A DNA stretch of 10,368 bases from a virus. Made by a program: the position numbers and the translations under genes. The DNA is taken from UHGV virus genome UHGV-0067349; one strand, written 5' to 3'. Under the pieces are notes generated by a model. It did not search any database. It had not been told where the DNA came from and saw nothing but the letters and a program-made list of their open reading frames with translations. Shown here piece after piece: positions 1 to 9,730 of the stretch; the first letter of the stretch is position 1, and each line of letters begins with the position of its first letter.

Positions 1-229
1 GGAGGGCTTTGCATTCTGCTTTGGTATACGTTTTACCGAGCATGATGTCTTTTCCGGTGTGTCCGTGACATACAGTCCATACACCAACAATATCTTTGTA
101 TGGTATGTAGCTAACACCTTCCAGACCATCGTTACCACTTGGTCCAGTGATTAACACAGATGCTATAGCAATAGCCCCGCCACTTATCGCCGCTATTACG
201 CTATTTCGTAGTGCCGGTGACATTGCCAT
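1..229 (-). CDS. SAR-type endolysin (lysozyme family), N-terminal part only; gene continues past the window start
   Basis: Minus-strand ORF from ATG at 229-227, with GAGGA 8 nt upstream. Translation: [76 protein letters not shown]. It has a Gly/Ala-rich weakly hydrophobic N-terminal segment (signal-anchor-release type) followed by a lysozyme-like region, and resembles phage 21 R / P1 Lyz type endolysins from memory. Start overlaps the 3' end of the holin gene. Absent from the ORF track because it is cut by the window edge. Confidence 0.75.
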
Positions 230-404
230 TCAATCTGTCCTCGCGCTCTTTGCGCTTGTAGTACCAGTTGATGCCAAATGTGCCGACAGTACAAAGAATA
301 CCAATGATGACAGCCCAGTCATTCAGGGAGAGAATGCCACCCATCGCAGTCAGTCCTCCGAAGCTGTAACTGAACCATTCTCTGATTTTGTCCATACGGT
401 ACAT
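201..404 (-). CDS. Class II (pinholin-like) holin with dual-start motif
   Basis: 67-aa [70 protein letters not shown]. Two predicted TM segments, the first Gly-rich and weakly hydrophobic, and a charged C-terminus. Met1-Tyr-Arg-Met4 is a dual-start arrangement typical of holin/antiholin pairs. It sits directly upstream of, and overlaps, the endolysin gene. A hairpin CCCCTcaatgaAGGGG immediately upstream includes the likely SD. Confidence 0.7.
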
Positions 405-531
405 GCTCTACCCCTTCATTGAGGGGATTTGCTCTATTTAATTAGGAATAAGGTCGATTACTGATAGAACAAATCCAGGCTACTGTGTTTAGTAATCAGA
501 TTTGTTCGTGACCGATATGCACGGGCAAAAC

Positions 532-561
532 GGCAGGAGGTTATTAGCGCGACCTCCTGCC
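532..561 (-). other. Conserved 10-bp-stem hairpin in the late leader (GGCAGGAGGT / ACCTCCTGCC, 10-nt loop)
   Basis: Perfect inverted repeat seen directly. On the minus strand it is followed by GTTTTGCCC, a weak U-tract. The surrounding leader reads as lambda-like from memory. Function unknown. Confidence 0.3.
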
Positions 562-647
562 ACCGCTTTCACGAAGGTCATGTGTAGAAGGCCGCAGCGT
601 AACTATCACTGATGAATTCAGGATAGCCAGTGGCTACGGCTCAGTTA

Positions 648-723
648 TGGTGCTGGTTAACGGACTTGAACCGCTACCCATTCGCTTACAAGGCGACTGC
701 TCTACCATTGGAGCTAAACCAGC
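648..723 (-). tRNA. tRNA-Thr-like, anticodon UGU
   Basis: Manual cloverleaf fold of the minus-strand 76-mer GCTGGTTTAGCTCCAATGGTAGAGCAGTCGCCTTGTAAGCGAATGGGTAGCGGTTCAAGTCCGTTAACCAGCACCA. Perfect 7-bp acceptor stem, 4-bp D stem GCTC/GAGC, anticodon loop CTTGTAA, T loop TTCAAGT, 3' CCA encoded. One G.A mismatch at the top of the anticodon stem. Confidence 0.6.
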
Positions 724-728
724 ATATT

Positions 729-803
729 TGGCGGGACAGCGTGGACTCGAACCACGATAAGAAGGTTAACAGCCTTCCGTAATGACCTTTATACGACTGA
801 CCC
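729..803 (-). tRNA. tRNA-Asn-like, anticodon GUU (irregular D arm; possibly degenerate)
   Basis: Minus-strand 75-mer GGGTCAGTCGTATAAAGGTCATTACGGAAGGCTGTTAACCTTCTTATCGTGGTTCGAGTCCACGCTGTCCCGCCA. Good anticodon arm GAAGG/CTGTTAA/CCTTC, T arm CGTGG/TTCGAGT/CCACG, CCA end. Acceptor stem has one T.T mismatch and the D stem is only 3 bp. Separated from the tRNA-Thr-like gene by 5 nt. Confidence 0.45.
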
Positions 804-807
804 AAAT

Positions 808-863
808 AAAAAATCCCGAAACCGTTATGCAGGCTCTAACTATTACCTGCTAACTGTTTCGGG
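808..863 (-). terminator. tR'-like intrinsic terminator ending the short PR' transcript
   Basis: Minus strand reads ...GCATAACGGTTTCGGGATTTTTTATTT, with stem CCCGAAAC/GTTTCGGG followed by a U-tract. Sequence and position match the lambda tR' terminator as recalled. Confidence 0.7.
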
Positions 864-999
864 ATTGCATTTTGCAGACCTCTCAGCCTGCGATGGTTGG
901 AGTTCCAGACGATACGTCGAAGTGACCAACTAGGCGGAATCGGTAGTAAGCGCCGCCTCTTTTTATCTCACTACCACAACGAGCGAATTAACCCATCGT
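808..999 (-). ncRNA. Lambda-type 6S RNA (short PR' leader transcript from PR' to tR')
   Basis: About 192 nt between the predicted PR' start (minus-strand ACGATGGGTTAATTCGC...) and the tR' U-tract. Near-identical to the lambda PR'-tR' leader as recalled. Not the host SsrS 6S RNA. Confidence 0.6.
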
Positions 1000-1035
1000 T
1001 GGGTCAAATTTACCCAACTTTATTCAAAAAGTCAA
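1000..1035 (-). promoter_or_regulatory. Late promoter PR' with qut (Q utilisation) region
   Basis: Minus strand has -35 TTGACT (plus 1030-1035), a 17-nt spacer and -10 TAAATT (plus 1007-1012), with start near 999. Lies about 45 nt downstream of the Q stop. Lambda-like arrangement. Confidence 0.65.
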
Positions 1036-1077
1036 TATCATGCCGTTAATATGTTGCCATCCGTGGCAATCATGCTG

Positions 1078-1701
1078 CTAACGTGTGACCGCATTCAAAA
1101 TATTGTCTGCGATTGACTCTTCCTTGTGGCATTGCACCACCAGAGCGTCATACAGCGGCTTAACAGTGCGTGACCAGGTGGGTTGGGTAAGGTTTGGGAT
1201 TAGCATCGTTACAGCGCGATATGCGGCGCTTGCTGGCATCCTGGAATAGCCGACGCCTTTGCATCTTCCGCACTCTTTTTCGACAACTCTCCCCCACTGC
1301 TCTGTTTTGGCAATATCAACCGCACGGCCTGTACCGTGGCAATCTCTGCATCTTGCGCCCGGCGTCGCGGCACTACGGCAATAATCCGCATAAGCGAATG
1401 TTGCGAGCACTTGCAGTACCTTTGCCTTAGTATTTCCTTCAAGTTTTGCAACGCCACGGTATTTCCCCGATACCTTGTGTGCAAATTGCATCAGATAGTT
1501 GATAGCCTTTTGTTTGTCGTTCTGGCTGAGTTCATGCTTACCGCAGAATGCAGCCATTCCGAATCCGGCTTGTGATTGCGCCATCCCCATAGCAGCCATC
1601 ACATCAGTACCGGAAAGAGAGTCAGAAGCCGTAGCCCGTGGTGAGTCGCTCATCATCGGGCTTTTTGGCGAATGAAATTTAGCTACGCTTTCGAGTCTCA
1701 T
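1078..1701 (-). CDS. Q: Late-gene antiterminator Q (lambda Q type)
   Basis: 207-aa ORF MRLESVAKFHSPKSPMMSDSPRATASD...CRDCHGTGRAVD...ECGRCKGVGYSRMPASAAYRAVTMLIPNLTQPTWSRTV..., recalled as essentially lambda Q with a Cys-rich zinc motif. SD GGGGAAGG upstream; ATGA overlap with the ninH stop; located just upstream of PR'. Confidence 0.9.
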   Translation of the reverse strand: MRLESVAKFHSPKSPMMSDSPRATASDSLSGTDVMAAMGMAQSQAGFGMAAFCGKHELSQNDKQKAINYLMQFAHKVSGKYRGVAKLEGNTKAKVLQVLATFAYADYCRSAATPGARCRDCHGTGRAVDIAKTEQWGRVVEKECGRCKGVGYSRMPASAAYRAVTMLIPNLTQPTWSRTVKPLYDALVVQCHKEESIADNILNAVTR

Positions 1702-9167: not shown

Positions 9168-9680
9168 CTGAGTTTAACCAAACAGGAGGTGCCGTAATGG
9201 TGCACTAACGCGGTTAGACCGCAGCCGAAAGGCAATGCAGCAGTAATGATGCTGCCCCGAGTCGCGTAATGGCGAGCAGGTTTAGCAGACCGATGTGAGG
9301 GTAAATAAGGGAACATGCTCCGGAAAGGCAGCGCGAATGCCAGACGCGCACCGGTTATCAGCGGCTAATAAGCGACAGAGACTCAAGGGCATGAGCGCGC
9401 TCACTGCGAGAGTGTGAGTCAAAGAGTAGTTGGCTTTGGGGTGACGTGAAGTGCAGCTGCACGACGGCAACCGGAAGATAAGCACCCGGCGCGTCACCGC
9501 CAAAGTCAATTCCATAGGCGTTATGCAGCCGCCACCATATTCAAGAAAGCTGCACAAGAGGTAGGAGGATTTATGTGAATACTTACATTCAGTTGAGAGA
9601 TTAATTAAATAGAACTGATCGAGCAGAGTCCATAAAGGCTCATAAATGCTCTTCCATCCCCGTCTAATTGGCGGGGAAGG

Positions 9681-9716
9681 AAACAACTTTGTAATAAAAA
9701 AATTCCAAAGTTGTTT
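9681..9716 (+). promoter_or_regulatory. 11-bp perfect hairpin immediately upstream of the N ribosome-binding site
   Basis: AAACAACTTTG-(14-nt A-rich loop)-CAAAGTTGTTT, ending 4 nt before GGAGG and 14 nt before the N ATG. Analogous in position to the RNase III-processed leader hairpin that modulates N translation in lambda. Confidence 0.4.
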
Positions 9717-9730
9717 CATCGGAGGTCAAC

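Follow-up and report, generated by a model that had tools for sequence, protein, structure and literature searches.

A known tRNA-Asn/tRNA-Thr cassette behind the late terminator of a lambda-like phage, with a probable nuclease-resistant tRNA-Thr

In the phage genome UHGV-0067349, two tRNA genes lie directly behind the late terminator and ahead of the lysis genes. The pair is already known as the cassette of phage 21, Sf6, SfI, BTP1 and HK446, and it is annotated in many records. We consider it probable that both genes are functional, that the tRNA-Thr is a replacement tRNA resistant to the P2 nuclease Old, and that additional supply for ACA codons is a side benefit; the tRNA-Asn may be a second replacement.

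The two tRNA genes and their late-operon setting

We analyzed the whole 10,368-nt stretch of DNA (hereafter the window) with ARAGORN, which called exactly two tRNAs, tRNA-Thr(tgt) at 648-723(-) and tRNA-Asn(gtt) at 729-803(-). Both were also detected at full length (model positions 1-71) by the Rfam tRNA model RF00005, with 61.5 bits (E = 1e-11) for tRNA-Thr and 55.3 bits (E = 5e-10) for tRNA-Asn, against a gathering score of 29. Both genes are therefore real tRNA genes. An earlier note, made from the letters of the sequence, had described two tRNA-like genes with the anticodons UGU and GUU at 648-803 and had left open whether they would fail covariance-model detection; the two programs agree with the former, and neither sequence fails. 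The minus strand is the late-transcript (rightward) strand of the phage, as Q and the holin are both encoded on it, and the tRNA genes lie on this strand between tR' and the lysis genes, as the earlier note had placed them. The order along the late strand is pR', the tR' hairpin and T-tract, tRNA-Asn, a 5-nt spacer, tRNA-Thr, about 245 nt of leader and the holin. The individual features are as follows.

1078 to 1701, minus strand: lambda-type late antiterminator Q, 207 aa (Pfam PF03589, Antiterm Q, E=1.3e-57)
1007 to 1035, minus strand: pR' late promoter, TTGACT-17-TAAATT (sigma-70 scan; aligns with lambda pR')
804 to 863, minus strand: tR' intrinsic terminator, with a long hairpin at 863-815, a T6 run at 813-808 and ATTT (identity to lambda, folds)
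729 to 803, minus strand: tRNA-Asn(GUU), G73 discriminator, encoded CCA (ARAGORN and Rfam, 55.3 bits)
724 to 728, minus strand: spacer AAATA, 5 nt, carrying the sole difference from phage 21 (T here, C there)
648 to 723, minus strand: tRNA-Thr(UGU), A73 discriminator, encoded CCA (ARAGORN and Rfam, 61.5 bits); its sequence is that of 'tRNA-Thr21' and of HK446 Thr(UGU)
579 to 647, minus strand: segment of about 67 nt common to lambda, phage 21 and the window (alignment), holding the right-hand recombination junction
405 to 578, minus strand: lambda-type leader 5' of the holin start, with a GC-rich hairpin at about 561-526; near-identical to lambda 45,0xx-45,185
201 to 404, minus strand: class II holin, 67 aa, not lambda S (Pfam PF16080, Phage_holin_2_3, E=4e-21)

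The holin is followed by a SAR-endolysin-like ORF that extends past the window end. At the DNA level, the Q gene is 96-98% identical to the Q genes of lambda and HK446, and pR' also aligns with an HK446 element annotated as 'similar to lambda PR''. The terminator is the same as that of lambda as far as TTTTTTAT, and its hairpin is present in both the MFE and centroid folds. The distance from pR' to the T-run is about 194 nt, which we take to match the size of the lambda 6S RNA. The tRNA-Asn begins at G803, 4 nt past the T6 run, so that the distance of 5 nt downstream of tR' given in the earlier note is essentially right. A 50-nt hairpin (640-591), again present in both the MFE and centroid folds, lies inside the 67-nt segment just 3' of tRNA-Thr. 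By eye, four differences between lambda and the window fall in this hairpin, two of them wobble-compatible and two pair-breaking, and covariation thus favored neither way.

The anatomy of both tRNAs is that of complete molecules. Their anticodon loops have 7 nt with U33 and A37 (CUGUUAA in Asn, CUUGUAA in Thr), G18G19 is present in both D loops, the T loops (UUCGAGU and UUCAAGU) are canonical, and the genes encode CCA behind discriminators G73 (Asn) and A73 (Thr). The tRNA-Thr forms a perfect cloverleaf apart from a G27.A43 mismatch at the base of the anticodon stem, and it carries G1-C72, C2-G71, G35 and U36, which are known identity elements for ThrRS. The tRNA-Asn carries G34-U35-U36 and G73; the GUU anticodon and G73 are known identity elements for AsnRS. 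The imperfect acceptor stem and D arm that the earlier note had seen in tRNA-Asn correspond to the mismatches U4.U69 and U13.U22. In a survey of IMG/VR, these mismatches were kept in at least 120 copies, so that they are traits of the family rather than signs of decay. Anticodon loops, identity elements and encoded CCA were likewise conserved across at least 120 copies.

Next, we considered how the genes are expressed. In a sigma-70 scan of positions 380-1120, pR' was the only promoter detected on the late strand, and the other strand gave none, which speaks against a promoter of the tRNAs' own in this interval. Given that pR' is the only detectable promoter, expression of the tRNAs should require either read-through of tR' under Q or leakage through it. 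In published RNA-seq of BTP1, whose cassette is 99.4% identical to that of the window, both tRNA genes rank with the strongly expressed prophage loci, and the start of the late operon seems to lie immediately behind the pair. This picture agrees with the tRNAs being excised from the leading end of the late transcript. By analogy, the proposal of the earlier note that they would be cut out of the late mRNA under Q antitermination is a reasonable inference.

Distribution of the cassette and its mosaic relation to lambda and phage 21

Phage 21 (OL657228), whose record annotates both genes, has gene bodies 100% identical to those of the window, and the spacer T/C difference is the only one in the cassette. 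Over a 173-nt region, identity is 100% in HK446, Kapi1, mEp506, HF4s and CurroJimenez, 99.4% in Sf6, SfI, BTP1 and phage 21, and about 89% in ST64T, L and PS3. Coverage of the region reaches 80% or more in at least 56 phage records. The cassette also occurs in 369 of the 5,426 complete E. coli genomes, with PGAP annotation as tRNA-Thr plus tRNA-Asn, and in at least 120 IMG/VR contigs. A scan of a contig collection with one genome per species gave just 4 matches, the E. coli and Salmonella representatives evidently being without the prophage, and these matches carry no information on host range. The genome paper of SfI (2013) described the tRNA pair, and reported one or both tRNAs at the same position in Sf6, ST64T, PS3 and phage 21. 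The tRNA-Asn gene is unannotated in the HK446 records, and a recent preprint describes HK446 as encoding 'a single' tRNA (bioRxiv 10.64898/2026.07.10.737580).

In phage 21, HK446, Kapi1, mEp506, Sf6, SfI and BTP1, the cassette has the same position as in the window, between the late terminator, which it directly follows, and the lysis genes, with Asn preceding Thr. The surroundings differ. In the window and in HK446 it stands behind the lambda-type Q/pR'/tR', whereas in phage 21 it stands behind Q21 and its own terminator; the lysis genes downstream begin with a class II holin of the HP1 family in the window, with S21 in phage 21 and with a lambda-like S in HK446. The IMG/VR matches listed show the same pattern on a larger scale. 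They include 37 loci with the cassette form of the window and 30 with the phage-21 spacer form, and tRNA-Asn is nearly invariant over at least 120 of them. It directly follows the T-run of the late terminator (...TTTTTTATTT) in all 124 of 124 loci among the matches listed, under at least five types of upstream leader; the terminator is of the phage-21 type in 101 loci, under three different upstream leaders, and lambda tR' in 19-20. Among the same matches, the 67-nt segment lies downstream of the cassette in 110 of 125 loci, and the flank beyond it is most commonly the lambda-type S leader (79 of 119), with the S21 leader in 25. Given the invariant attachment to the T-run and the varied flanks, the cassette behaves like a portable module welded to the late terminator.

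We then compared the window with lambda and phage 21 in a three-way alignment. The window follows lambda through Q, pR' and tR' to the T-run, where TTTTTTAT is common. From the T-run on it follows phage 21, through both tRNAs and into the 67-nt common segment, in which it has the phage-21 base at five of the six variable sites, the last at position 587. Beyond this segment it follows lambda again, to the ribosome-binding region of the holin. A phage-21-type tract of about 227 nt has thus been recombined in, with the left junction in the U-tract of the terminator (its T-run) and the right junction in the 67-nt common segment. The 156-nt cassette of the window stands in place of 159 nt of unrelated lambda sequence at 44,783-44,941 and is thus a replacement without net insertion. 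The flanks are lambda-like, as the earlier note had it, but the discrete insertion that it read from them gives way to this exchange of a longer tract. Lambda itself has no tRNA at the corresponding position according to ARAGORN, and cmscan at E<=10 gave no tRNA-like match there, which agrees with the earlier note. A degraded tRNA relic in the 159-nt lambda counterpart is likewise ruled out, since ARAGORN found none and cmscan at E<=10 returned only a meaningless snoRNA match.

Other phage tRNAs can be set beside this pair. The Stx phages (933W-type) are said to carry ileZ-argN-argO downstream of Q, in a description reportedly due to Plunkett and colleagues in 1999. These genes resemble the cassette in being tRNA genes in a lambdoid late leader, between the Q terminator and the late genes downstream. 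However, their anticodons are those for rare Ile and Arg codons (Ile CAU-type, Arg UCU/CCU), while those of the window are GUU and UGU, so that the pair lies outside that set; the match of Stx phages to the query ends after its first 33 nt, which is the terminator part, and no similarity is seen beyond the terminator region. The earlier note was right that the pair differs from the Stx set, although the pair is not unusual, having been in print since at least 2013. The SfI genome paper cites related ileX work. The plasmid prophages P1 and P7 carry a tRNA-Thr(UGU) that is about 80% identical to the tRNA-Thr of the window, compared with about 70% for host thrU. Their closeness suggests a shared pool of phage Thr(UGU) tRNAs, although in P1/P7 the gene has another genomic context, outside a late leader.

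Resistance to Old and the anticodon arms

The nuclease that bears most directly on the Thr member is P2 Old, the effector of classical P2-lambda interference, whose lethal effect comes from cleavage in the anticodon stem of host tRNA-Thr(UGU), a tRNA with a single gene copy (PMC12445682, NAR 2025). Cleavage of host tRNA-ThrU occurs after C28 and C40, in paired CNG motifs, and phage Thr(UGU) tRNAs rescue cells from Old by replacing the host tRNA (PMC12445682). In particular, tRNA-Thr21 of phage 21 protects against Old toxicity and resists cleavage, a resistance ascribed to alteration of the CNG motif together with a shorter anticodon stem; the Thr tRNA decodes ACA, and rescue by related phage tRNAs is anticodon-dependent (PMC12445682). 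Extra host tRNA-ThrU gave no protection from Old, whereas the phage copies did (PMC12445682; bioRxiv 10.64898/2026.07.10.737580). The preprint (July 2026) further reports that HK446 Thr(UGU) expressed from a plasmid brought the plaquing of the Old-sensitive phages HK97, HK542 and Bas34 back to near wild-type, that on its own it failed to rescue lambda, or recB cells from Old toxicity, and that HK446 also encodes a protein inhibitor of Old, Oad2 (bioRxiv 10.64898/2026.07.10.737580). Because Oad2 is carried as well, the tRNA may be redundant in HK446. The functional tests in the literature all used plasmid-expressed tRNA-Thr. Resistance and rescue have been shown by others for the Thr sequence of phage 21 and HK446, which is identical to the copy in the window, and by analogy may be attributed to that copy too.

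With respect to the Asn member, Asn(GUU) is a slower Old substrate, as is Lys(UUU) (PMC12445682), and the preferred Old targets are listed without Asn in the preprint (bioRxiv 10.64898/2026.07.10.737580). AriB, the Toprim nuclease of PARIS, which is related to Old, has Lys(UUU), Thr(UGU) and Asn(GUU) of E. coli as substrates and cleaves them between nucleotides 40 and 41, beside U36-A-A-U39; substitutions at U39 and A41 block its cleavage, and evasion of PARIS needs a resistant tRNA-Lys (PMC12409363). The cassette has no tRNA-Lys.

We therefore checked the host sequences of asn and of the single-copy gene thrU in more than 5,400 genomes and compared the phage copies with them at each position. 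The anticodon arms compare as follows.

Host ThrU: positions 28-30/40-42 CUG/CAG; positions 36-41 UAAUCA; anticodon stem of 5 bp
Phage Thr: positions 28-30/40-42 UCG/CGA; positions 36-41 UAAGCG; stem with the G27.A43 mismatch
Host Asn: positions 28-30/40-42 CGG/CCG; positions 36-41 UAAUCC
Phage Asn: positions 28-30/40-42 AAG/CUU; positions 36-41 UAACCU

In the tRNA-Thr of the window, the paired CNG is altered and the anticodon stem is shortened relative to host tRNA-ThrU, which are the two published features of resistance. The AriB site U36-A-A-U39-C|A41 is altered as well, to UAAGCG. In the phage Asn, AAG/CUU and UAAC stand where the host has CGG/CCG and UAAU. From this we infer that the anticodon arm of the phage tRNA-Thr would explain resistance to Old, and the arm is conserved even in a Klebsiella phage version. 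The Asn variant of the Klebsiella phage has a paired CNG motif (CAG/CUG), so that loss of CNG is not universal for Asn. In a tRNA that is only about 62% identical to the host one, loss of a given stem motif is expected by chance. The T5 tRNAs offer a likeness at the level of sequence, in that the tRNAs of T5 and of the window both bear anticodons that are nuclease targets and are substituted at positions 39 and 41, which flank the cleavage site. However, T5 is a virulent phage with a large tRNA array, and the window cassette is without the tRNA-Lys needed for PARIS evasion.

In the group of phages L and ST64T, the second tRNA has lost 3 nt of the anticodon loop, which leaves a 4-nt loop, while the Asn is intact and identical to the copy in the window. 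The second tRNA is presumably dead in this group, to judge from its loop. The presence of an intact, invariant Asn beside a decayed Thr suggests that Asn is selected in its own right, the target possibly being an uncharacterised nuclease.

Based on these observations, we propose the following course of events. RNA polymerase would start at the constitutive pR' and normally halt at tR', 4 nt short of tRNA-Asn. Once Q has been made, polymerase would read through tR', and both tRNAs would be excised from the head of the late transcript by host processing, with RNase P acting at the 5' ends and endo- and exonucleases at the 3' ends, and would be charged by host AsnRS and ThrRS. The Thr(UGU) would resist Old, the Toprim tRNase of prophage P2, and stand in for the destroyed host tRNA-ThrU, so that ACA decoding is restored. 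The tRNA-Asn(GUU) may act as a second replacement, for a secondary target of the same nuclease family, and extra capacity to decode ACA is likely a side benefit and not the main reason. A further step is more tentative, and we rate it as somewhat less than an even chance: the Asn would also be nuclease-resistant, and Asn and Thr together would form a small counter-defence set directed at those Toprim/OLD-family tRNases, P2 Old and PARIS-like AriB variants, that share Thr(UGU) and Asn(GUU) targets, with the placement at the head of the late operon timing delivery to late protein synthesis.

Codon supply and other explanations

The pair might instead raise the supply of decoders for codons that are commoner in the phage than in the host (ACA; AAC/AAU) and so speed up late protein synthesis. 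HZ41, the closest whole-phage match to the window, has no exact copy of the cassette, and HK446 was therefore used as the cassette-bearing genome for the codon comparison. ACA is about 2-fold enriched, with 13.2 per 1000 codons in HK446 and 18.1 in the ORFs of the window against 6.9 in a 50-kb sample of E. coli. The SfI genome paper gives 17.3 versus 7.1, and the single copy of thrU in the host also speaks for this reading. However, lambda has the same ACA usage (12.9 per 1000) without the cassette. The excess in HK446 lies in the early genes (18.4 per 1000, 36% of Thr codons), whose translation precedes the synthesis of any tRNA from the late leader, whereas the late genes are host-like for ACA (9.9 per 1000; 15% of Thr codons versus 13% in the host). 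AAT/AAC usage equals that of the host (0.42 versus 0.40), and the SfI genome paper found no codon bias for Asn. The failure of overexpressed host tRNA-ThrU in the Old assays, where the phage copies protected, also argues against mere supply. Since neither lambda versus HK446 nor early versus late genes discriminate in its favor, codon supplementation is rejected as the main driver and seems unlikely to account for the pair. It is compatible with replacement of nuclease-cut tRNAs rather than exclusive of it, and codon supply is at best a secondary benefit. The comparison of anticodons with codon usage that the earlier note had suggested thus explains the pair poorly, and replacing nuclease-cut host tRNAs is the better-supported role.

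We also considered the possibility that the tRNAs serve as punctuation for RNA processing, splitting the 6S/tR' leader from the late mRNA or shaping its stability with decoding incidental, or that they are hitch-hiking relics of recombination. Such a role would fit the position of the cassette against the terminator T-run under every leader type among the matches listed, the apparent start of the BTP1 late operon right after the tRNAs and the conserved 50-nt hairpin 3' of tRNA-Thr. However, lambda does without the cassette, at least 120 copies keep the anticodon loops, the identity elements and the encoded CCA, and the Thr tRNA decodes ACA, with anticodon-dependent rescue in related phage tRNAs. 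We regard this explanation as very improbable.

Least credible of all, with hardly any probability left to it, is compensation for a host tRNA gene disrupted by prophage integration, which the preprint suggested for HK446 (bioRxiv 10.64898/2026.07.10.737580) and which would suit the integration of HK446 and SfI at thrW, a tRNA-Thr gene: the anticodon of thrW is CGU and not UGU, the Asn gene is left unexplained, and a quiescent lysogen would express the cassette only poorly, given its place past a terminator in the late leader. The attP of HK446/SfI-type phages, moreover, carries a thrW-like segment. Such a segment normally regenerates the tRNA gene on integration. Phage 21, with the same cassette, presumably integrates in icd, which is not a tRNA gene.

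Replacement of nuclease-cut host tRNAs thus stays our preferred explanation. As a discovery, the pair in the window adds little, given that annotations of the cassette exist in dozens of phage records and in hundreds of E. coli genomes and that experiments already support a role for its Thr member. It is nevertheless a useful, well-defined case of a counter-defence tRNA in temperate phages, and it ties the classic P2-lambda interference to a natural lambdoid allele that is absent from lambda.

HK446 and metagenomic copies of the cassette

The two tRNA genes are unannotated in both HK446 records (JQ086372 and NC_019714), and accordingly this phage has been credited with 'a single' tRNA, Thr(UGU) (bioRxiv 10.64898/2026.07.10.737580). 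This description overlooks the tRNA-Asn that adjoins Thr(UGU); when we ran ARAGORN on HK446, both tRNA genes were called. The exact Asn/Thr junction was also found in short contigs (L015 and L017, from a genome-contig collection) of MAGs that bear the labels Segatella copri and Collinsella sp.; the likeliest explanation is mis-binning of contigs from enterobacterial phages.

Variant cassettes in other phages

The cassette also occurs in variant forms, located as follows.

Salmonella phage L (L007), 590-661: second-tRNA variant, a form also found in ST64T and PS3
Phage JLK-2012 (L008), 590-743: chimeric tRNA-Thr variant, also found in 12 IMG/VR loci among the matches listed
Klebsiella phage ST101-KPC2phi6.1 (L009), 370-689: expanded cassette Asn-Phe(GAA)-Thr-Arg(UCU)

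The form shared by phage L, ST64T and PS3 is about 89% identical to the cassette of the window. In phage L, the second tRNA has an anticodon loop of 4 nt; it scored 42 bits against the Rfam model, with 2 nt in place of five model positions, and ARAGORN made no call for it. Its GenBank label is tRNA-Leu(TAA). The adjoining tRNA-Asn is intact and has the same sequence as that of the window.

In the JLK-2012 type, the tRNA-Thr is chimeric, with a 3' half resembling that of host thrU, and its anticodon stem is weakened by mismatches at both 27:43 and 28:42. Downstream of tRNA-Thr comes a third gene, tRNA-Gly(UCC). It has been reported that Gly(UCC) is among the preferred targets of Old, the P2 prophage tRNase (bioRxiv 10.64898/2026.07.10.737580); despite this, the stem of the phage tRNA-Gly(UCC) retains a paired CAG/CUG. 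The expanded cassette of ST101-KPC2phi6.1 lies 3' of a different antiterminator, and its tRNA-Thr has the same anticodon arm as that of the window, whereas the stem of its tRNA-Asn is unlike the window's (GCAGG/CCUGC).

Hairpins and antisense signal around the tRNA genes

Two hairpins lie in the leader downstream of tRNA-Thr.

591-640, minus strand: 50-nt hairpin (GCCGUAGCC...GCUGCGGC)
526-561, minus strand: GC-rich hairpin (GGCAGGAGG...CCUCCUGCC) followed by GUUUUG, in the lambda-type leader

The 50-nt hairpin, a predicted structure recovered by the MFE and centroid folds alike, begins 7 nt 3' of tRNA-Thr. It lies inside a segment (579-647) that is common to lambda, phage 21 and the window, and that is present in 110 of the 125 surveyed cassette copies in IMG/VR contigs, among the matches listed. 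The few positions at which lambda and the window differ gave no clear covariation in this hairpin, which might serve in processing the late leader or in setting its stability. The GC-rich hairpin is present in lambda too and resembles a terminator; its T-run is below the length needed by the terminator scanner.

The Kapi1 transcriptome paper described a clear antisense signal opposite the two tRNAs (648-803 of the window, plus strand) and a similar one in BTP1, between the tRNAs and the holin. We found no sigma-70-like promoter on the plus strand of window positions 380-1120. Either an antisense RNA that has escaped recognition or an artefact, produced in the library by abundant tRNA, could account for the signal.

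Coding regions and a further junction

The coding features concerned are as follows.

9282-9719, minus strand: 145-aa ORF in the immunity-proximal region
Within 1-425, minus strand: class II holin of 67 aa (PF16080, HP1 family)

The 145-aa ORF had no Pfam match at E<=0.001. The minus-strand leader of the window is lambda-like as far as the holin ribosome-binding region, and the lysis genes of the 1-425 region (minus strand) differ from lambda S and R: the ORF 3' of the class II holin has an N-terminus similar to that of a SAR endolysin such as that of phage 21. The change from lambda-like leader to non-lambda lysis genes marks a further mosaic junction at about 405-425.
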